Shown here piece by piece: positions 7,981 to 40,200 of a stretch of DNA of 49,498 nt. Where the stretch lies: IMG/VR virus record IMGVR_UViG_3300029839_000128. One strand, given 5' to 3'. The stretch's first letter is position 1. Each line of letters opens with the position of its first letter. Both the position numbers and the translations under genes were made by a program. Origin of the DNA: a virus. Lineage: Duplodnaviria; Heunggongvirae; Uroviricota; Caudoviricetes. A model generated the notes under the pieces. The model made no database searches. It saw only the letters and a program-made list of their open reading frames with translations, and had not been told where the DNA came from.

Positions 7981-8295
7981 GTGATCAAAAGCGATTTGGT
8001 CAATGCTCTGGCTGAGATGGATTACTGCAAGAACCAGGTGGGTGAAGTAATTAGCGATATTTTCAGGGTGATTGCAGAGGCACTTGTGGAAGGAGAAAAG
8101 GTCACGATTCGTGGCTTTGGAACTTTTGAGGTGAAAACGAGAAAAGGGCATCTGGTTCAGGATGCCCATACTAAGCAGAAGAAAATGATGGATGATTACC
8201 AGACGATAGTTTTTAAGCCTGGTGATAATCTGAAAGATGCTGTGAAGTATCGCGACGCCGATAGGCTTACTCTTCTGTCCAGAGCAGAAAAATAA
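7981..8295 (+). CDS. hup: HU-family histone-like DNA-binding protein
   Basis: MIKSDLVNALAE, VTIRGFGTFEVKTRKG and FKPGDNLKDAV signatures. Confidence 0.92.
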   Translation: MIKSDLVNALAEMDYCKNQVGEVISDIFRVIAEALVEGEKVTIRGFGTFEVKTRKGHLVQDAHTKQKKMMDDYQTIVFKPGDNLKDAVKYRDADRLTLLSRAEK

Positions 8296-8319: not shown

Positions 8320-8348
8320 TTGACAATGAGAGAAAGCTGTGGTATAGT
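8320..8348 (+). promoter_or_regulatory. sigmaA/sigma70 promoter driving the RNA operon
   Basis: TTGACA (8320-8325), 17-nt spacer, TATAGT (8343-8348), an extended -10 TG and an A/T-rich upstream (UP-like) tract. Confidence 0.85.
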
Positions 8349-8442: not shown

Positions 8443-9076
8443 CAATCTTTCAATCATGCTTATTACTAACTCAGTGAACAAAGTGTGTCAGCGCTCTGAG
8501 GTATGGGGTAATTTCAGTCTGATCTGCGAGGGATACCTTTCAGGGAGGGCTGCTGCTGTGTAGCGATACATGGTGGGTAGGCGGAAACCGCCAAGAAAAA
8601 CTTATAGCGCCAAGAGTTGTCGCTTTGTAATGCACAGAACTTTCGGGCGAAACAATAGACGCTCCTGTGGAGAATAAGCCTTTGGGATTACGGTGTGGCA
8701 GCTGTAACGACGGAGGTAAAGCCAATAATTCGCTCCTGTCTTGATGTCGGAGAAATCCGGCTATAACGAAAGTCGCTGGTTAGAGTAGCCGTAGGACAGA
8801 GAGAAGATGATCTTTTTATAATGCAAATTGGATTGCGTTTTGTAAAAGTAAAATTTCTGAACGAACGGTGAAATTTACGGGTAGGCAATCCCGTGCGGGA
8901 ATAAGCGGACATAGAGCCGTGTAGGAGACTGGAACATCTCTGGGGTAAGAAGTTAGGGGTCGCGCCCCGAAGCTCAGACTTATCTTCCCGGTGGCAGAAA
9001 AACGAAGAAGGCAATGGAGGTAGGGTGAAGATCCAGTAATAAGTATGATTGAGAGATTGAGTTTTTCAAAGCAACA
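8428..9076 (+). ncRNA. large structured ncRNA (~570 nt core in a 40-bp terminal stem), ROOL-like candidate
   Basis: 8428-8467 pairs with 9035-9076 (40 bp, 2 G-U, 2 bulges). There is no + strand ORF in the track and there are many internal hairpins. It sits between a strong promoter and a tRNA array. The family name is by size and context only. Confidence 0.7.
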
Positions 9077-9089
9077 CATAAAAAGATTT

Positions 9090-9165
9090 GGGGCCATAGC
9101 TCAGCTGGGAGAGCGCCTGCCTTGCAAGCAGGAGGTCGGGAGTTCGATCCTCCCTGGTTCCACCA
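9090..9165 (+). tRNA. tRNA-Ala(TGC)
   Basis: Cloverleaf, anticodon arm CCTGC-ctTGCaa-GCAGG, G3-U70, encoded CCA. Confidence 0.97.
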
Positions 9166-9278
9166 GTAAGATGTGTTGGATATGTTGACGATTGTGCGGT
9201 TCAGCTCATTACTTTACTGCTATTTTAGTCAAAATCCTATCAGCTGCAGATGAGGTTCTTCGGACGCACATCGTAAAT

Positions 9279-9354
9279 CGGGATATAGCTCAGCAGGTAG
9301 AGCATACGATTGATAATCGTAAGGTCGGAAGTTCGACTCTTCCTGTCCCGACCA
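9279..9354 (+). tRNA. tRNA-Ile(GAT)
   Basis: TACGA-ttGATaa-TCGTA, GTTCGA T-loop, CCA. Confidence 0.95.
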
Positions 9355-9356
9355 TA

Positions 9357-9374
9357 AACCTTGAAAAGTAAATA
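9357..9374 (+). promoter_or_regulatory. second boxA-like element upstream of tmRNA
   Basis: AACCTTGAAAAGTAAATA resembles the clostridial rrn spacer boxA (ACCTTGAAAACTGAATA type). Confidence 0.4.
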
Positions 9375-9375
9375 T

Positions 9376-9785
9376 GGGGTCGCAATGGGTTCGACGGGGT
9401 TTTGAGAATGTGATGTTCGCAGGTAGAAGACCGCCTCAAGGCTTAACCAAAAATAAAATGACGACACTACTGTTGTAATGATCCATCCCGCACTGGCTGC
9501 TTGTGTAGCAGAGGGGATTGCCGCCTAATTGACGGCTGGAACCAAAACAATGCACTTGTACGGAAGGGGCATTTGAGGTTAAAGAATCCGTACATAAACA
9601 GTTTCCTTGTTCTGTAACAAAATAAGGTGGTGGAGGTGTGCCAAGCCGGTACGCCCTAAGTGTAGATTTGACAGTATCGCAAGCAACTTTCCGCAAGGAG
9701 AAAGCTGAAACACTGTCTATTGCGTAAGAAGACATCTCATAAGTAGGAATTTCGGACAGGGGTTCGATTCCCCTCGACTCCACCA
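9376..9785 (+). ncRNA. ssrA: tmRNA (transfer-messenger RNA)
   Basis: 5' GGGGTCG..GGTTCGACGGGG; 3' GGACAGGGGTTCGATTCCCCTCGACTCCACCA; acceptor stem with G3-U70. Tag frame 9460-9528 (DDTTVVMIHPALAACVAEGIAA*) follows an A-rich resume context. Confidence 0.95.
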
Positions 9786-9788
9786 TAT

Positions 9789-9864
9789 AGAGGATGTAGT
9801 GCTAATGGATAACACGCCGGCTTTGGGAGCCGGAATTGCGGTTCAAATCCGACATCTTCTACCA
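9789..9864 (+). tRNA. tRNA-Pro(TGG), atypical (8-bp acceptor, short T-stem)
   Basis: CCGGC-ttTGGga-GCCGG anticodon arm, GTTCAAATC T-loop, CCA; acceptor AGAGGATG/CATCTTCT. Confidence 0.75.
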
Positions 9865-9868
9865 TCTT

Positions 9869-9929
9869 TGGGGCACTTACAGCAACATTAACAAAACTTG
9901 TATAGGTTTCAAGAAAAAAATGTGCCCTA
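9869..9929 (+). repeat. ACAGCAAC stem element, copy 1 (candidate small RNA)
   Basis: TGGGGCAC/GTGCCCTA stem enclosing TTACAGCAAC, an A-rich linker and a CTTG/CAAG hairpin. Confidence 0.65.
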
Positions 9930-9937
9930 TAAAATAC

Positions 9938-10004
9938 GGAGACGCTAACAGCAACTTAACAAAAAAATCAAAGCTATTTACATTTGACAACAAAATGCGT
10001 CTTC
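9938..10004 (+). repeat. ACAGCAAC stem element, copy 2
   Basis: GGAGACGC/GCGTCTTC stem enclosing TAACAGCAAC, an A-rich linker and a TCAAA/TTTGA hairpin. Confidence 0.65.
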
Positions 10005-10010
10005 AAATAT

Positions 10011-10086
10011 TGGCCCGTAGCTCAGTTGGTAGAGCGCCTGACTGTTAATCAGGATGTCGCAGGTTCGAGTCCTGCCGGGTCAGCCA
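10011..10086 (+). tRNA. tRNA-Asn(GTT)
   Basis: CCTGA-ctGTTaa-TCAGG, G73, CCA. Confidence 0.97.
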
Positions 10087-10136
10087 ACAATAACAGGCGT
10101 AATGCCGTTTGCCCTTGGGAGACCGGGGTTATATAT

Positions 10137-10211
10137 TGCGGGGTAGAGCAGCGGTAGCTCACCAGCCCCATAAGCTGGGGGTCGTGGGTTCGAGTCCCAC
10201 CTCCGCAACCA
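10137..10211 (+). tRNA. tRNA-Met(CAT), initiator-like body
   Basis: CCAGC-ccCATaa-GCTGG; TGCGGGG acceptor and A11-U24 resemble fMet; CCA. Confidence 0.85.
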
Positions 10212-10442
10212 TGCCCGCCTCACGAACAGAGCGGAGACTGTAAACCGAATGAGGAATAGAAACCATCGTATCTGGCAGCGGTGATTTGCAGGTTTAGGAA
10301 ATCTGATGACGAGCGGAAAGACGCTACACCCAAGGCTTTTGACCAAGTTAGGTTTGGGTTGAAGAAAAACTGGCGGAGATCCATTACTCCTGAACTGGTG
10401 ACGCTTCGCAAAGACGAAGATTGCGCCGCAAGCGGCGCATAT

Positions 10443-10518
10443 GTCCGGTTAGCTCAGCTGGGAGAGCATATGCCCTACAAGCATGGGGTCGGCGGTTCGA
10501 GTCCGTCACCGGACACCA
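10443..10518 (+). tRNA. tRNA-Val(TAC)
   Basis: TATGC-ccTACaa-GCATG, GTTCGA T-loop, CCA. Confidence 0.93.
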
Positions 10519-10523
10519 TAAAT

Positions 10524-10600
10524 GCAGGCGTAGTGTTTAACGGATAGCATACTGGTCTTCCAAACCAGGGGTACGGGTTCAAATCCCGTTGTCTGCTCCA
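10524..10600 (+). tRNA. tRNA-Gly(TCC)
   Basis: CTGGT-ctTCCaa-ACCAG, U73, CCA. Confidence 0.93.
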
Positions 10601-10609
10601 TTTTAATAT

Positions 10610-10694
10610 GCGGGTATGGCGGAATTGGAAGACGTGCGGGATTTAGGTTCCCGCGCCGTAAGGCGTGTGAGTTCGATCCTCACTACCCGTACCA
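10610..10694 (+). tRNA. tRNA-Leu(TAG)
   Basis: CGGGA-ttTAGgt-TCCCG, long variable arm, CCA. Confidence 0.95.
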
Positions 10695-10696
10695 CT

Positions 10697-10761
10697 GGGG
10701 CACTTACAGCAACTTATTTTCTGGAATCAACTGTTAATTGATCAAACCAAAACAGTGCTCC
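10697..10761 (+). repeat. ACAGCAAC stem element, copy 3, carrying an Asn(GTT)-type anticodon stem-loop
   Basis: GGGGCACT/AGTGCTCC stem, TTACAGCAAC, and internal ATCAA-ctGTTaa-TTGAT. Confidence 0.7.
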
Positions 10762-10769
10762 GTATATAT

Positions 10770-10856
10770 GCCGGCGTGATGGAATTGGTAGACTTGACGG
10801 ACTCAAAATCCGTTGGTAGCGATACCGTGTGGGTTCGAGTCCCACCGCCGGCACCA
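10770..10856 (+). tRNA. tRNA-Leu(CAA)
   Basis: ACGGA-ctCAAaa-TCCGT, long variable arm, CCA. Confidence 0.95.
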
Positions 10857-10864
10857 GCTTTTAC

Positions 10865-10949
10865 GCGGGGGTGGCGTAACTGGCAGACGCATCAGGCTTA
10901 AGTCCTGATATCGTGAGGTGTAGGGGTTCGAGTCCCCTTCCCCGCACCA
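10865..10949 (+). tRNA. tRNA-Leu(TAA)
   Basis: TCAGG-ctTAAgt-CCTGA, long variable arm, CCA. Confidence 0.92.
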
Positions 10950-10959
10950 TATTACAGCT

Positions 10960-11036
10960 GGCAGCATGACTGGAGATGGCTCCAGCACGGCTTCATAAGC
11001 CGTAAGACGCAGGTTCGAGTCCTGCTGCTGCCACCA
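10960..11036 (+). tRNA. tRNA-Met(CAT) (elongator Met, or Ile2), atypical D-arm
   Basis: ACGGC-ttCATaa-GCCGT, GGCAGCA/TGCTGCC acceptor, CCA; the D-arm is CTGGA/TCCAG. Confidence 0.85.
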
Positions 11037-11039
11037 TAT

Positions 11040-11113
11040 GATGCCGTAGCCAAGTGGTAAGGCTCTGGGCTGCAACCCCAGGATCATAGGTTCAAATCCT
11101 ATCGGCGTCTCCA
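11040..11113 (+). tRNA. tRNA-Cys(GCA)
   Basis: CTGGG-ctGCAac-CCCAG, U73, CCA. Confidence 0.95.
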
Positions 11114-11116
11114 TAT

Positions 11117-11192
11117 TGGGGTATCGCCAAAATGGTTAAGGCACAGGACTTTGACTCCTGCACTACTGGTTCGAGTCCAGTTACCCCAGCCA
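11117..11192 (+). tRNA. tRNA-Gln(TTG)
   Basis: CAGGA-ctTTGac-TCCTG, U1-A72, CCA. Confidence 0.95.
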
Positions 11193-11340
11193 TAAGGTTT
11201 GACCGTACCTTGCCACACGGTTTGGTATGACACCGCCATAAGTAGTGTGTAGCGGCAGCGCGCAGAAGGTTATGCGAGCTATGCGTTGGTTCTACGGCAA
11301 TGTGAAAGTAAGTGTTGGCAGCACACCGTAGAGTTTATAT

Positions 11341-11417
11341 GCTCCCATCCTCTAATTGGAATAGGAGGCCGGCCTCTCAAGCCGGCAATACGAGTTCGAG
11401 CCTCGTTGGGAGTACCA
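11341..11417 (+). tRNA. tRNA-Glu(CTC)
   Basis: CCGGC-ctCTCaa-GCCGG, CCA. Confidence 0.92.
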
Positions 11418-11420
11418 AAT

Positions 11421-11497
11421 GGTGCCGTGGACGAATTGGTAGAGTTGCCGGCCTTTCAAGCCGGAGTTTGCGGGTTCAATCCCCGCCGGCATCACCA
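11421..11497 (+). tRNA. tRNA-Glu(TTC)
   Basis: CCGGC-ctTTCaa-GCCGG, CCA. Confidence 0.92.
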
Positions 11498-11513
11498 GAA
11501 ATGAGGATCGTAT

Positions 11514-11744
11514 ATGGGCAGAAAATCTAACGAAACACAAGTTAAAATTGTGAAGAAGATACCGTCTACTGAAAATGGGCCGGGTGTACATTGTACTACT
11601 TTATCTGGGGACATATATATTATTTCTCAATGCGTAGAGAAATGCAGATTTACATTATGGCACAAGGTTGAAGGAGGTTTTGTCCAGATAGCAACTGCGA
11701 AATCTCCATTAGATCTTGATGATATGATTCCTTGGATAGACTAA
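11514..11744 (+). CDS. small hypothetical protein embedded in the tRNA array
   Basis: 76-aa ORF that fills the spacer between tRNA-Glu and tRNA-Asp; GAGGA RBS before the ATG. Confidence 0.6.
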   Translation: MGRKSNETQVKIVKKIPSTENGPGVHCTTLSGDIYIISQCVEKCRFTLWHKVEGGFVQIATAKSPLDLDDMIPWID

Positions 11745-11746
11745 AT

Positions 11747-11823
<77 letters not shown>

Positions 11824-11825
11824 AT

Positions 11826-11900
11826 AGGGGTTTGGTGTAATTGGCAGCATGACGGTCTCCAAAATCGTTGGTGAGGGTTCAAATCCTTCAACCCCTGCCA
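11826..11900 (+). tRNA. tRNA-Trp(CCA)
   Basis: ACGGT-ctCCAaa-ATCGT, G73, CCA. Confidence 0.95.
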
Positions 11901-11901
11901 T

Positions 11902-11977
11902 GCTGATGTAGCTCAGATGGTAGAGCGATTGTTTCGTAAGCAATATGTCCAGAGTTCGATTCTCTGCATCAGCTCCA
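11902..11977 (+). tRNA. tRNA-Thr(CGT)
   Basis: ATTGT-ttCGTaa-GCAAT, CCA. Confidence 0.93.
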
Positions 11978-11980
11978 TTT

Positions 11981-12056
11981 GCTGGTATAGCTCAGATGGT
12001 AGAGCGACGGATTTGTAACCCGTAGGTCGTCGGTTCGACCCCGGCTACCAGCTCCA
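11981..12056 (+). tRNA. tRNA-Thr(TGT)
   Basis: ACGGA-ttTGTaa-CCCGT, CCA. Confidence 0.93.
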
Positions 12057-12194
12057 TTCACAAGATATGTAGTTTGGAAACTACACTAAATATAGGAGTT
12101 TTAATAGAAATCAATGAAGCATTGTTTTAAGAACCATCCCGAATAGTAATGGGCAGGGGATAAATACATATAAATACTTAGTCAAAATATAAAT

Positions 12195-12281
12195 CGGTAG
12201 GTATCCAAATTGGTGAAGGAAGCGGTCTGTAAAATCGTGACATTAGAAACGCTGTTGGTTCAAGTCCAACCCTACCGACCA
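12195..12281 (+). tRNA. tRNA-Tyr(GTA) with C1-G72
   Basis: GCGGT-ctGTAaa-ATCGT, long variable region, acceptor CGGTAGG/CCTACCG, A73, CCA. Confidence 0.9.
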
Positions 12282-12286
12282 AATAT

Positions 12287-12379
12287 GGCGGAATTGACCC
12301 CAGTAGGTGCGGGGAGCAGTCTTGAAAACTGTTGGCTGTGATGAGCGGCTTGTGGGTTCGAGTCCTACTTCCGCCGCCA
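12287..12379 (+). tRNA. tRNA-Ser(TGA)
   Basis: GCAGT-ctTGAaa-ACTGT, long variable arm, G73, CCA. Confidence 0.92.
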
Positions 12380-12441
12380 TACTTCATATACCATGTGTAT
12401 ATTGAAGCCAGGGAAGTCGTATTGCGATTTCCCTCTTTTAC

Positions 12442-12518
12442 GGAACGATAGCTTATGAGGTCTGAGCGGCGGTCTGAAAAACCGCAGGATGAAGGATCGT
12501 TACCTTCTCGTTCCACCA
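12442..12518 (+). tRNA. tRNA-Phe(GAA), T-loop variant
   Basis: GCGGT-ctGAAaa-ACCGC; T-arm GAAGG-ATCGTTA-CCTTC; CCA. Confidence 0.88.
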
Positions 12519-12874
12519 TGCCAGAAATGGCAACTTTACTCCTATCAAGGTGCGAGGCGAGACGGATAGGCGTCTAAGACCCACGCAACATCTTATCTTA
12601 TGCCGGCAAGTGTATGGGGTCATTCCCTCCGGTGAAAGTCCGGCGCAGAAACGCGATAGATCTAACTGAGCTGCTGTGAGCAAAGCAGGCAAGCCGATCA
12701 GGAGCGCGGCGGGCCGACATACCCCAACAGGACTTTGGGAGCCTGAGAAAGTATGTCCCTCTAAAGGTGGTCAGCAACTGAGGTAAAAGAAGTGTAGTAA
12801 CCGTGCAAATCGGAACGACTGGTAAATTCCATCCGTGAGAGTCGGACGTTGCTTCTACGAAAAGAAGCTTTTAT

Positions 12875-12950
12875 GCGCCTGTAGCTCAGATGGAAGAGCA
12901 GCGCACTTTTAATGCGTGGGTCGGGGGTTCGATTCCCTTCAGGCGCACCA
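12875..12950 (+). tRNA. tRNA-Lys(TTT)
   Basis: GCGCA-ctTTTaa-TGCGT, CCA. Confidence 0.96.
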
Positions 12951-12974: not shown

Positions 12975-13002
12975 AGTCCGACCATTTCTGGTCGGGCTTT
13001 TT
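12975..13002 (+). terminator. intrinsic terminator ending the RNA operon
   Basis: AGTCCGACCA-tttc-TGGTCGGGCT followed by a T-run. Confidence 0.8.
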
Positions 13003-13026
13003 CTATATAGAAAGGAGGCCGCAGCA

Positions 13027-14027: not shown

Positions 14028-15827
14028 ATGGATTATGAAAAAATCATGGATGAGCGTCAGAAACACCTCCATGAACACTTTTCTCCTAATAGTTATCTTG
14101 GAGATCCAGATCGAGTTAAACGGTTGCTGGACTGGATGACGTTCTGGCGACGAAATCCAAATCGATTTGTCCAGTATTACTTTGGAATCGTGCTCCATCT
14201 GTATCAGCATATCATTTTATATCTGATGGACATTTATCCCAGTATTTGCATTGTTGCAGCGCGAAGCGCAGCTAAGTCATTTATCATTGCGGTATACGCC
14301 TGCAAGGAGGCGATTTTACGACCTGGTGCCCGTATCGTTATTGCGTCAGCCACCAAGAAACAAGCACGATTGATTGTTTCGGAAAAGATAAAAAAAGAAA
14401 TTTTACCGCGATCTCCGCTTTTGCAGGAGGAAATCGATACCTTTAAGGATAGCCAAAATGATATTGAGGTCATTTTTAGAAACGGTAGTTCTATTGTAGT
14501 TACAGTAGCGAACGATACAGCTCGTGGTCTGCGTGCTACGGTTATGATTTACGAAGAGTTCCGAATGATCGTAAAGAATATCATTGATACAGTTTTGTCT
14601 CCTTTTCTGTATGCTCGGCAGGTGCCTTTTATGCAGTATGAGGAGTATGATTCGCTGCTGGAAGAGCCAAAGGAAGTTTATATTAGTTCTGCGTGGTATC
14701 GAAACCATTGGATGTGGGGCAGTATAAAAACTTTTGTAAAAGATATGCTTGGCAAAGACTCTTCGGTAGTGATTACAATGGATTACAGCATTGCTTTGAA
14801 ACACAAAATCAAAACCAGAAATTTCCTTATCAAAGAGCGAAAGAAGTTGGACGCCATCGCGTGGGCAATCGAATATGAGAACCAAATGATTTCGGAAAAT
14901 GCTCATGCGTATTTTACTTATGAGATGTTAAACAAAAATCGTATTTTGAAGCGCCCATTTTATCCAAGGAAAAATGAGGATGTTCTCTCTCGCGTAAGGA
15001 ATAAATACGCTATTCCTAAACAAAAAGGAGAAGTACGAATTATCAGTTGCGATATTGCATCTGAGGGAGGTACTGGAAACGATAATTCCGTATTCTCATG
15101 TATTCGTGCTTTACCAGAGTCTAAAGAGTATAAGAGATCGGATACGGGTGGAGATCATATCGAAGTGCAGCAGGGTTATCGCCGACAGGTGGTTTATATG
15201 GAAGCTCAGGAAGAGTTTGAAACCATTAAGCAAGCGATCCGAATTAAGCAACTGTTTGCTGATTTTGAGGCGGATTACTGTGTGTTGGATACCAGAAACG
15301 CTGGTGTTGCCATTTTTGATGCACTGGCGAAGGTACTCTATGATGAGGAACGCAATGTAGAATATACTCCATGGACTTGCATGAATGACGATAAGCTAAA
15401 ATCTCGCATTGTAATTGCGGGCCAAGAAGAGGTTGTATTTTCTGTTAAGGCACAGTTGGATACCAATAGCAAAATTGCAGTTTGTATGCGCAATACTCTT
15501 GAAAATGGAATGATTGAGCTGATGATCAATAACCAAGAAGGTATTGAAGAGCTGCAGCGTCTTGTTCCAGAGTATGCGACAGCGGATGTAGATACTCAAA
15601 TTGGTTATGAGCGTCCATTCCACGAAACTTCCGCGCTGGTCAACGAAATGATTGGTTTGGAATACACAGTTATGAACCAGACGGGCTTAATCCGTATTGA
15701 GGAGAAAGCTGGCGCAAGAAAAGACCGTTATACATCGGTATCCTATGGCAACTATTTTATTGAGCTTTTGGAAAAAGATTTGTTTTCTGATAGCTCTGAA
15801 TACGAATACCTAACTCTTGTAAATTAA
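14028..15827 (+). CDS. terL: terminase large subunit
   Basis: Walker A variant AARSAAKS, Walker B IYEEFR, YISSAW coupling motif, nuclease motifs SCDIA and RKDRYTS. Confidence 0.9.
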   Translation: MDYEKIMDERQKHLHEHFSPNSYLGDPDRVKRLLDWMTFWRRNPNRFVQYYFGIVLHLYQHIILYLMDIYPSICIVAARSAAKSFIIAVYACKEAILRPGARIVIASATKKQARLIVSEKIKKEILPRSPLLQEEIDTFKDSQNDIEVIFRNGSSIVVTVANDTARGLRATVMIYEEFRMIVKNIIDTVLSPFLYARQVPFMQYEEYDSLLEEPKEVYISSAWYRNHWMWGSIKTFVKDMLGKDSSVVITMDYSIALKHKIKTRNFLIKERKKLDAIAWAIEYENQMISENAHAYFTYEMLNKNRILKRPFYPRKNEDVLSRVRNKYAIPKQKGEVRIISCDIASEGGTGNDNSVFSCIRALPESKEYKRSDTGGDHIEVQQGYRRQVVYMEAQEEFETIKQAIRIKQLFADFEADYCVLDTRNAGVAIFDALAKVLYDEERNVEYTPWTCMNDDKLKSRIVIAGQEEVVFSVKAQLDTNSKIAVCMRNTLENGMIELMINNQEGIEELQRLVPEYATADVDTQIGYERPFHETSALVNEMIGLEYTVMNQTGLIRIEEKAGARKDRYTSVSYGNYFIELLEKDLFSDSSEYEYLTLVN

Positions 15828-37232: not shown

Positions 37233-40200
37233 GTGTATCTGGATTATTCAAAATTGAAAAGCGGCCAGATCAAGCAGCCTGAGTTGAGGCTACAAACTCT
37301 GGCTGGTAAAGAATTGGGGATTATCCCATGGGTCAATGGATTGAACTTCGAGCTAAACTATGCAGCGGTAAGTCGTGTAGAGTTCGATGTTCCTCGGCAT
37401 TCTGATGGTAAAATCAATCCTTTGTATCAGAAATTGACCAGCTATAAGATGTTGTTTACCAAAGAACTTGGTATTTACATTCTGCAAAGACCTACTACGT
37501 CGGGAGACGGTGTATCGGAGGTTAAGCATATTACTGGTTATTCTATTGAGCAGATTTTTGAAAAGAAGATGCTCTTTTTAGAAGAGGGAACCTACAATTT
37601 CTGGAACCCAGTGACGCCGGATGATACAATTCTGGGAAGAATCCTGGAGTTGGATACTACATGGAGCATTGGTTATGTCGATCCAAAGTTAATTGGATGT
37701 TATCGCACATTTGATGAGTATGATAGCGACGCTCTAAGTTTCTGCTACGGAAGTGCTATGGAGAAGTACAACTGCACTATCGTATTTGATGTGTACGCAA
37801 AAACCATCAATGCTTATGATGCCGGCAAGAGTCGGGGCACGGTACCGGTCTATCTTAGCTATCAAAATTTGGTGGATGCAGTAGACCTGGAAGAGTTGAC
37901 TGACGACATGGTGACACAGCTGCATTTGTACGGATCAGACGACTTGAGTATCCGTGACGTAAACCCTATGGGTACGGACTATCTGGTAGATCTATCCTAT
38001 TTTATTTCCAATGGTGATCTGGATGTAGTCCCGGAGGGAAGTACCGTAAAGTTGGCTGAACGTGTGAAGGGTTGGGACGCTTTAATCCGCAGCAATCAAG
38101 GATACTATACCAATCTGGTAGCGGCGCGTGCCTCCAAGACAGCACAAAAGCTGGCTGAGGAGGTAACGCTTGCGGATCTGAAAAGTGAACTGGAAGTGCT
38201 AACGACGGAGCAGAGTGTAATCATTCAGGCGATTGCGCTGGAGACCACCGAAGCGGGCAAGGCCACTCAGCAAAAAAACTTGTCTGATAAGACGGCAGAG
38301 ATCGATCGTAAGAAAGAGGAGATTGCCTCTCAGGAGGCAGTCATCGCAGACTTGCAGGATGAGATCGATCAATATGCTGGAGATATTCAGGCTGTAGTCA
38401 ATCAGTTGGCATTCTCCAAGTATTTTACAGAAGCCGAGCAAAAGATCCTTAACCTGTATTTGATTGAGGGCGATACGACAGAAGAGACATTTGTGGCGAC
38501 CGATGTTGATACTGCGGCGTCCGGTGCGATTTCCACCATTCAAGGCAGCTTGAAGATCAGTGATTCAAATGTAGTGCGTGCGACATTGAACGGGAAGAAG
38601 TTGTATGGCGCTACGGGCGGAGCACTTCAGATTATCAGTGCCAAGCTGACAACGGATATTGTGCAAGGAACTTTGGAAGTAGACGAGAGTAGCGGTGCAT
38701 ATGTGCTGACAGCCTATATGGGAACGATTACTTTTGGAGAGCATAGTTTTCCAAGCGGTATGATTACGGTATCTGGCACACTTTCTCAATTTTCCAGTGA
38801 CATTTCTACTCAAAACAGCGAGGGTGTTTCGGAGGATAAAGGAAGTTGGATTTCTTTTGAAGCGGCGTCGTCTAAGATGTTTTTCACTGTAAATGTGAAC
38901 GATTATCAGAAGTATTCTGTCGCCCGTGAGCTTTACTCATTCGGAGAGGAGTTGCTGGAGGAGTGGGCGTGGCCGGTATACGAGTTTTCTATCGATACGG
39001 CTAACTTCCTGTTTCAAAAGGAATTTGAACCGTTCAAAGACAAGCTTGAGTTCGGTAAGAACATTTATTTGAATATCGGCGATGAGGGCGTTATTGAGCC
39101 GAAGTTTATCGGTTTGAGTATCGATTTTGATAATCCCGAAAATATTACCCTGACATTTTCCAATCGTTTTCAAAAGCGAGATGTAGTAGCAAATTGGTTG
39201 AGCGATATTAACAAGACCAGTGCTTCCAGTCGGAGTTTTGATGCCAGTAAGTATCTCTATAACAAGACGGCAAATAAAACTACGCAGGTTTCTCAATTTA
39301 TGGAGAATGCGCTGGATGCTGCGGTGAACACCATTATTGGTGCCAGTAACCAGAGCGTCGTGATTAACGGTGCAGGTATTCAGGTGGGCGGTGACAGTAA
39401 GTATCAGTTGCGCATTGTGGATAATATGATCGCTATGACTGACGATAGCTGGCAAAGCGCAAAACTTGCGTTGGGGCGGTTCTATTCTGATGCAAAAACT
39501 GGTCTGAAAGATGACAGTGGAAAAGATATTCTAATTGGCGAGACTTGGGGTATTAACACAGAACTGTTGGCCGGTAATTTGATTATCGGTAATAATTTGG
39601 TGTTGGAAAACGCTAATGATGATGGCGTGATGCAGTTCAAAGTGGATGCTACTGGTGCGTGGCTCTATAATGCTTCATATATCATGCAACATAATAATGG
39701 CGGATTGATGATTTTCGACCCCAAATATGGCATTGTAGCGGGAACTAAACTTTTGTTCGATACCAACGGAACTACGGTTACTCCAGAATTTATTGACGAG
39801 TATGGAGATATTGAGTTTGACTCAGATGGTATGCCTGAAAACGCAAACTTCTTTTTGGATTTACGAGACGGTAGTGCATATTTTCGTGGTAAGGTAACGG
39901 CTACTTCTGGTAAGATTGGCGGATTTACCATCGAAGATACATTTTTGCATGGTGGTAGTAATTCTAATTATGTGGCGTTGAATGGATCTGGCAGTGGAGC
40001 TAACAGTCTTTATGCAATGTGGGCTGGAAGTCCTACCCCAGAAAATGCACCGTTTTCTGTTAGAAAGAATGGAGACCTCTATGCTAAAAACGGCACATTT
40101 AGAGGAACTGTGTCTGGAGCATCGTTTAGAGATCGTGCTGGAAATTCTATGATGAATAGTTTGTATGAGTTTACCGCAGATTATCTGAACCTAAACGGAA

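Follow-up and report, generated by a model that had tools for sequence, protein, structure and literature searches.

The stretch of DNA analysed here (hereafter the window) comprises 49,498 nt from a virus of the class Caudoviricetes (IMG/VR record IMGVR_UViG_3300029839_000128), and is phage DNA, with a large-terminase gene (14028-15827) and an HU-like gene (7981-8295). Between these, at 9090..12950 on the + strand, lies an RNA-gene array of 23 transfer RNA (tRNA) genes and one transfer-messenger RNA (tmRNA) gene (ARAGORN, Rfam), and interleaved in this array are three short elements, each 2-8 nt from the adjoining RNA genes. An earlier reading of the letters alone (hereafter the original prediction) had described them as tRNA-like RNAs lacking arms, with a common motif and no named relative. 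We find that these elements belong to a real, conserved, and uncatalogued family of small-RNA genes, here called handle RNAs after the handle that they share (i.e., a terminal stem followed by the motif ACAGCAA), and that this family co-occurs with the phage protein family DUF2828.

The GC-rich closing stem, motif, and insert that the original prediction described are present in all three copies, with RNAfold predicting a closing stem of 8 bp for each on the + strand. Copy 1 (9869..9929, +) pairs 9870-9876 with 9922-9928 (GGGGCAC/GTGCCCT), plus U9869-A9929, carries the handle motif TTACAGCAAC at 9877-9886, and has as its insert a weak hairpin (CTTG/CAAG) with AGG within the loop. Copy 2 (9938..10004, +) is closed by GGAGACGC (9938-9945) and GCGTCTTC (9997-10004), carries the handle motif TAACAGCAAC at 9946-9955 and a TCAAA/TTTGA hairpin with a 10-nt loop, and ends 6 nt before tRNA-Asn. 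Copy 3 (10696..10762, +) is closed by GGGGCACT (10697-10704) and AGTGCTCC (10754-10761), with the handle motif TTACAGCAAC at 10704-10713, and its insert is an anticodon-arm mimic, ATCAA/CTGTTAA/TTGAT, at 10726-10742 (5-bp stem, Asn GUU), followed by an A-rich linker. As had been noticed from the letters, the loop of this arm (CTGTTAA) is identical to that of the array tRNA-Asn, though its stem differs and is unrelated. T(T/A)ACAGCAAC stands directly 3' of the 5' stem strand in all three copies, and the first 17 nt of copies 1 and 3 are identical. D arm, T arm, and CCA are likewise absent from all three, and neither ARAGORN nor Rfam calls a tRNA at any of them. Two finer observations fared less well: the three copies have a G-U pair at stem position 1, 2, or 3, and the proposed G3-U70-like pair is therefore no such signal, and a start 2-4 nt after a tRNA CCA is right for copy 3, whose first stem G lies 2 nt after the CCA of the upstream tRNA, but not for copy 1, where the distance is 5 nt.

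Homologues were sought with two covariance models, R1, which was built from the three window copies alone with a 7-bp stem, and R2, a refined model. Copy 1 scores 75.7 bits with R1, and R2 gives 42.9 bits (E 4.7e-9), 36.4 bits (E 2.8e-7), and 48.6 bits (E 1.3e-10) for copies 1, 2, and 3; within the window, the family model picks out exactly these three elements, at E 1e-10 to 3e-7, and its next match has an E of 3.7. The motif by itself discriminates weakly, as ACAGCAAC occurs five times in the window, always on the + strand, against 1.79 expected (6/100 shuffles reach five), and a search allowing two mismatches returned 107 matches against 83 expected. A descriptor that asked for CAGCAA and any stem of 6 bp or more proved too loose (10/35 + strand and 9/41 - strand sites pass), and was dropped for the covariance models.

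The original prediction had read covariation from the stems of the window itself; copies 1 and 3 being identical over those 17 nt, only copy 2 informs that comparison, and the real support for covariation comes from the homologues. In alignment A3 (61 distinct rows), 99.8% of stem cells are paired and 5/7 pairs have changed on both sides, and in A5, whose 89 distinct rows come independently from bacterial genomes, 98.7% are paired and 7/7 pairs have changed on both sides. The covariation score was matched by 0/500 shuffles in either alignment, and slid controls pair just 23-57% of cells. Across 149 distinct elements, with a median length of 62 nt, 134 retain ACAGCAA and 140 retain CAGCAA, whereas stem sequence and insert are free to vary, and it is the combination of a covarying terminal stem of about 7 bp and ACAGCAA after it, as found in the window elements, that marks a member. 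The motif had been called invariant, but its final C varies across the family, this position being U in 71, C in 45, and A in 24 of 140 elements.

The inserts are of several kinds. Anticodon-arm mimics (a YUNNNRN loop on a hairpin stem of at least 4 bp) occur in 72/149 distinct elements, compared with 8.1 +/- 2.7 in shuffles, and their triplets differ (GUU 19, GCU 11, UUU 8, and UGA 4), a feature for which the original prediction had asked that homologues be tested; some near-identical elements are distinguished solely by the triplet (GUU, GCU, or UUU). Other family members carry T arms or entire permuted tRNA-like bodies and reach 120-147 nt. Copy 3 is an orthologue of a common Asn-type element, and the same architecture is found in "type A" elements upstream of DUF2828 genes. 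Compared by eye, the hairpin of copy 2 recurs in two relatives with the 7-nt loop CTTTTAC (L106:1457-1515 and L107:1434-1492), and copy 1 is akin to a subclass with GGG-containing loops; copies 1 and 2 display hairpins of two other recurring kinds.

The link to DUF2828 was found in both directions and in strand orientation, a partner gene being among the things that the original prediction had asked to be tested for, and it is a link of co-occurrence. An exact 17-mer scan of viral contigs returned six stretches, two of them in the record G001 (described below). Two others (L009 and L011) carry elements in tandem, their stems differing from those above, immediately upstream of an open reading frame (ORF) whose product Pfam calls DUF2828 plus DUF7788, at 145 and 135 bits, and which also has a weak vWA match; L010 and L014 are stretches without tRNA genes in coding-like DNA, and were set aside as chance. 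When 79 viral loci of about 11 kb were chosen solely for a DUF2828 gene, R1 found at least one match at E <= 0.1 in 73 of them. All 140 of its matches lie on the strand of the gene, 137 of them within 600 nt upstream of the DUF2828 start. Of the R2 matches at DUF2828 loci of bacterial genomes (mostly Clostridia, and probably prophages), 91/95 are on the gene's strand. DUF2828 clusters are themselves mostly viral (protein atlas).

The reverse search started from the RNA, using a handle-only pattern (20 fixed and 4 two-fold positions, gap 25-55) for which, by our arithmetic, fewer than about 4 chance matches per 10^12 bases are expected. This pattern matched at least 120 viral stretches, from which 50 loci were sampled (one per contig, from the first 55 listed) and 48 records searched. 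DUF2828 was above the Pfam cut-off in 40 of these 48 records picked by RNA pattern alone, and in 19/22 of those at least 90% complete, versus 0/14 control genomes; its base rate in cultured phages is about 1.4% (711/50,697 records, tblastn). Handle-to-gene distances in the pattern-picked records range from adjacent to about 27 kb. A contig of 914 nt from a giant-virus bin (L185) also contains three exact matches to the handle pattern, with no DUF2828 in the searchable part of its record.

Handle elements stand beside DUF2828 in cultured phages of hosts from three phyla (Firmicutes, Actinobacteria, and Proteobacteria), in varied arrangements. Elsewhere, the largest phage cluster has an element whose end falls directly at the DUF2828 ribosome-binding site. 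Of the cultured phages, Listeria phage LP-125 has two elements right before DUF2828; a ROOL-like RNA and tRNAs lie upstream, and the downstream genes include ones annotated as an RtcB-like ligase and a putative RNA ligase. In Mycobacterium phage Faith1, two elements come right after a gene annotated "Ro-like RNA binding protein", and no tRNA gene was found in the 13.4-kb stretch around DUF2828 (record annotation, Rfam scan). Felixounavirus LF82P2 has one element, which lies between tRNA genes near the DUF2828 gene.

The closest relative of the window is G001, a phage record of 123 kb (91% complete) that shares 67% of the window's sampled words. It carries all three copies, with two differences from the window, both in linkers and none in the handle. 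Its DUF2828 gene (38070-39518, - strand; product 40% identical to the L009/L011 type) lies 45 kb from the three copies, somewhat beyond the range of the pattern-picked records, and just upstream of it are three further handle elements, two of which are inside tRNA-like genes. These two tRNA-like genes (L016 9647-9760 and 10411-10521, - strand; G001 39.6-40.5 kb) retain their acceptor, D, and T arms intact (50.3 and 46.8 bits with the Rfam tRNA model), with 7-nt anticodon loops replaced by inserts of 47 and 45 nt bearing the handle motif; in one of them the 3' strand of the handle overlaps the T stem, so that two folds would compete. Immediately downstream of the G001 DUF2828 gene is a class-V aminotransferase gene (cysteine-desulfurase-like, 247 bits; L016 6784-7938, - strand), and on the same strand this is accompanied by a weak RNA_ligase match, a YunG-like gene, and an AAA_33 kinase plus HD protein.

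The G001 DUF2828 protein is predicted to share the Ro60 fold. Its AlphaFold model, made from a 17-row alignment, has a mean predicted local distance difference test score (pLDDT) of 82.2 and a predicted template modelling score (pTM) of 0.76, and every one of its 13 best matches in the PDB is a Ro60/TROVE chain, matched over the full length (E 1.2e-9 to 2.2e-5, template modelling scores of about 0.4-0.58). By sequence no relative emerges: phmmer with a DUF2828 protein against the PDB gave a chance match only (E 0.66), and the TROVE Pfam model PF05731 has no match in G001.

That the elements matched no named motif was true in so far as no Rfam family reaches threshold on any of the three, at gathering or permissive settings, but one family, RF01414 (the Class I RNAs of Dictyostelium), resembles them. 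It is the best sub-threshold Rfam match, with 20.7 bits on copy 1 and 17.3-26.8 bits on relatives against a gathering score of 41.5, and in 4/5 phage records searched the best RF01414 match falls exactly on a handle element. Both kinds of RNA are about 60 nt long, with 5' and 3' ends joined by a short stem whose pairing is kept while its sequence varies; both have a conserved 11-nt motif directly after the 5' strand (Rfam consensus CCUUACAGCAAU versus CACUUACAGCAAC in copies 1 and 3), with CUUACAGCAAU common to the two, a variable interior, an A-rich 3' linker, and UG after the 3' strand. According to Kjellin et al. 2021 (PMC7919456), Class I RNAs are found only in dictyostelids, have a DUSE promoter, and are bound directly by the RRM protein Rnp1A. 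The phage elements, in contrast, sit in a tRNA array, without the dictyostelid promoter setting (DUSE about 60 nt upstream).

The likeness to YrlA and Y RNAs is one of arrangement. In both cases small RNAs tend to lie near, and on the strand of, the gene for a ring-shaped protein of the Ro60 fold (a predicted one for DUF2828, whose gene in G001 is about 45 kb from the three copies) with a vWA domain, the terminal stem is the presumed protein handle, a variable module mimics parts of tRNA, and the neighbours are of RNA-repair type (here the kinase plus HD protein and weak ligase match of G001, and the RtcB-like ligase and putative RNA ligase of LP-125). Chen et al. 2014 (PMC4201824) describe the same-strand adjacent arrangement of Ro60 and its Y RNA genes, as well as a GNCGAA / GGUCCGA-type motif in the helix of YrlA to which Ro60 binds; a further study reports Ro60 with Yrl1/Yrl2 in Thermus phage phiLo (PMC12135203), and another, whose subject is an RNA-repair operon (RtcB/RtcA) controlled by damaged tRNAs, refers to Ro60 and Y RNA (PMC7790460). 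The differences are equally clear, since the protein here is Pfam DUF2828 plus DUF7788 and not TROVE, the handle is a stem plus single-stranded UWACAGCAA with no GNCGAA/CGAA or GGUCCGA-type helix motif in the stems, and the window copies are shorter (60-67 nt versus 80-130 nt) and have no T-arm/D-arm domain. The YrlA model RF02553 has no match on the three elements, its weak matches (17.8 and 24.3 bits; gathering score 69) lying on true tRNAs, and none near the DUF2828 genes of three cultured phages at E <= 0.01. With tRNA itself (RF00005), the elements share an end stem of acceptor-stem length (7-8 bp), their placement and orientation within the tRNA array, and, in copy 3, a 5-bp stem with a 7-nt CU-GUU-AA loop, but they have no discriminator, and the conserved ACAGCAA is foreign to tRNA. 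A literature search found no description of the handle RNA family, the Chen 2014 supplements on phage YrlA loci, which could bear on novelty, lying outside that search; among the DUF2828 papers found, none addresses the handle RNA or the function of the protein.

Taken together, we put at roughly 0.6 the probability that the elements are members of a widespread family that co-occurs with phage DUF2828 and that they serve as Y-RNA-like partner RNAs, bound through the stem-plus-motif handle. The original prediction had offered two roles, anticodon decoys against host anticodon nucleases or sponges for a protein that recognises ACAGCAAC. By analogy with Ro60, DUF2828 would be the candidate for that protein, and the RNA, by the further analogy with Y RNA, would be its partner rather than a sponge; binding of handle RNAs by DUF2828 is what we infer from this likeness.

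The other of those two roles would make the elements free-standing decoys, i.e., RNAs without a dedicated protein that bait or sponge up the anticodon nucleases of the host or further enzymes that read the anticodon loop, with the DUF2828 link reflecting a shared tRNA-defence neighbourhood. Such a role would suit the anticodon-arm mimics of copy 3 and of nearly half of the distinct members, the variation of the anticodon among near-identical elements, and their position in tRNA arrays beside repair-like genes; yet a decoy has no need of a conserved handle, which is nonetheless kept while the rest varies, about half of the members (copies 1 and 2 included) have no anticodon arm, and the handle tracks DUF2828 in both directions, even in Faith1 with its tRNA-free neighbourhood. 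We regard free-standing decoys as unlikely. It is rather unlikely, too, that the handle is bound by another host or phage protein (e.g., of RRM or La type), with DUF2828 acting in the same pathway and not touching the handle. Co-occurrence cannot separate a direct from an indirect partner, and the direct binding of Class I RNA by an RRM protein lends this account a precedent; against it, the predicted Ro60 fold of DUF2828, together with the fact that in many lineages gene and elements are same-strand neighbours no more than a few hundred nt apart, reproduces the Ro60/Y RNA arrangement reported by Chen et al. 2014, and no other gene was seen consistently beside the elements, although no systematic search for one was made.

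In cis-acting roles, the elements would be leaders regulating DUF2828 translation, or processing or punctuation signals in tRNA transcripts, with no role as free RNA. An element ending at the DUF2828 ribosome-binding site in the largest phage cluster, window copies that abut tRNA ends, and a promoter-like match (9984-10011) that overlaps copy 2 would fit such roles, but in the nearest relative some 45 kb separate the copies shared with the window from the gene, elements elsewhere lie downstream of the gene (Faith1, LF82P2) or 19-27 kb away, genomes hold several copies with differing inserts, and promoter-like matches are not above chance in this region (8 versus 6.2 +/- 2.5 in shuffles), and we regard a cis-acting explanation as improbable. 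Least probable of all, and already disfavoured, is that the elements are functionless, as decayed tRNA genes or neutral repeats. Their location among tRNA genes and the T arms or whole tRNA-like bodies kept in some relatives would agree with decay, whereas stem pairing preserved by compensatory changes, the conservation of a non-tRNA motif among phages that infect Firmicutes, Actinobacteria, and Proteobacteria, and the confinement of both differences between the window and G001 to linkers do not.

Several points weigh against DUF2828 as the partner, or against how far the counts above can be generalised. The window holds no DUF2828 gene, which is inferred from the nearest record, and the RNA-DUF2828 link is one of co-occurrence only. 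The 80 proteins (79 viral plus that of G001) form 10 clusters at 70% identity, one with 68 members, and just 6/10 clusters have a match at E <= 0.1. At DUF2828 loci of bacterial genomes, an R2 match lies within +/-3 kb in only 43/80, and most of a Lachnospiraceae group of about 50% identity has none within that distance. Conversely, 8/48 handle-bearing records have no DUF2828 match, including 3/22 near-complete ones. The A3 and A5 alignments behind the pair counts were fitted to the model, and the folding energies of the three window elements are ordinary, no more stable than shuffles (z -0.93, -2.04, and -0.86). Neither copy 1 nor copy 2 has an anticodon arm as its insert, and the RNA_ligase match in G001 is below the Pfam cut-off (20.9 versus 27 bits).

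If the elements are indeed partner RNAs of DUF2828, the following course of events can be envisaged. A single transcript would cover the array, and from it the tRNA-processing steps, namely RNase P cleavage at the downstream tRNA and trimming that follows the upstream CCA, would release discrete RNAs about 60 nt long. A Ro60-like ring would then bind the handle, leaving the insert displayed, which in copy 3 would be an Asn (GUU) anticodon arm. Because Y RNAs tether Ro60 to other proteins, the particle might, by analogy, serve as bait for host enzymes by which anticodon loops are attacked or recognised, or deliver phage RNA-repair enzymes to damaged tRNA.

A wider reading, which we hold only tentatively and consider doubtful as a whole, joins these parts into a second particle of Ro60/Y-RNA type that spans phages of Firmicutes, Actinobacteria, and Proteobacteria, with the RNA pattern also in one giant-virus bin. 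Its inserts would be interchangeable pieces of tRNA, exchanging their anticodons in the course of an arms race against the anticodon nucleases of hosts, the particle would serve as nuclease bait or repair guide, and the Class I RNAs of social amoebae would be a eukaryotic branch of the same RNA family. Such a particle could have been overlooked because its protein family and RNA handle both differ from the canonical ones.

The surroundings of the elements in the window offer further observations. The stretch is contained chiefly in public runs of chicken-gut metagenomes, and the + strand ORFs downstream of the terminase gene are large (e.g., 2835 and 1307 aa) and by size would fit tail genes. 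A full-length ROOL RNA (8446-9053, +; Rfam 377 bits) lies directly upstream of the tRNA/handle array, and the tmRNA gene inside the array (9376-9785, +; Rfam 83.5 bits) encodes a tag peptide of 28 residues (ARAGORN). The ROOL-like match in LP-125 (L305 4471-5022) scores 87.4 bits, under the gathering score of 99.1, and occupies the same position relative to the tRNAs, handle elements, and DUF2828 gene of that phage, and ROOL, tRNAs, and handle RNAs may therefore travel together. The ROOL RNA and the array are preceded by a promoter-like site at 8320..8348 (+; TTGACA, 17 nt, and TATAGT with TG; 11/12), a consensus match only, and directly 3' of the last tRNA is a terminator-like hairpin at 12976..13003 (+; 8 pairs then TTTTT), which was read from the sequence and is not listed by the promoter/terminator scan. 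These could possibly be the start of the element-carrying transcript and the end of the RNA-gene transcript. Metatranscriptome contigs span all three copies and flanking tRNAs (X16 9617-9939 and 10473-10829; X15 9945-10296), but these reveal no RNA ends or levels and DNA carry-over is possible, so we make no claim of expression.

The array also contains spacers of other kinds. A G+C-rich spacer of 356 nt between tRNA-Phe and tRNA-Lys (12519-12874, +) has no ORF, Rfam match (E <= 1), or handle-model match, and may be another structured RNA; a candidate fourth element within it (12762-12873, GGTCAGCAAC) passed the loose descriptor only, with no model match, and was rejected. Four more + strand spacers of 113-231 nt (9166-9278, 10212-10442, 11193-11340, and 12057-12194) likewise have no Rfam or handle-model match, the first of them being closed, as judged by eye, by a stem of about 10 bp (ACGATTGTGCG / CGCACATCGT). 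Between tRNA-Glu and tRNA-Asp is an ORF of 76 codons with a nearby GAGGA (11514-11744, +) that matches no Pfam family.

For the annotation of phage genomes, handle elements account for "empty" spacers in tRNA arrays. If the proposed partnership is true, DUF2828, a family annotated as hypothetical, "RNA-binding protein", or "Ro-like RNA binding protein" in Felixounavirus, Listeria Pecentumvirus, and mycobacteriophage records, would gain a partner RNA and a testable role. The likeness to RF01414 would further provide a first lead, outside amoebae, on the purpose of the Class I RNA handle. Finally, the Ro60/Y-RNA principle of a ring protein with a modular tethering RNA would reach a second protein-RNA pair, and would be tied to the conflict between phages and their hosts over tRNA cleavage.

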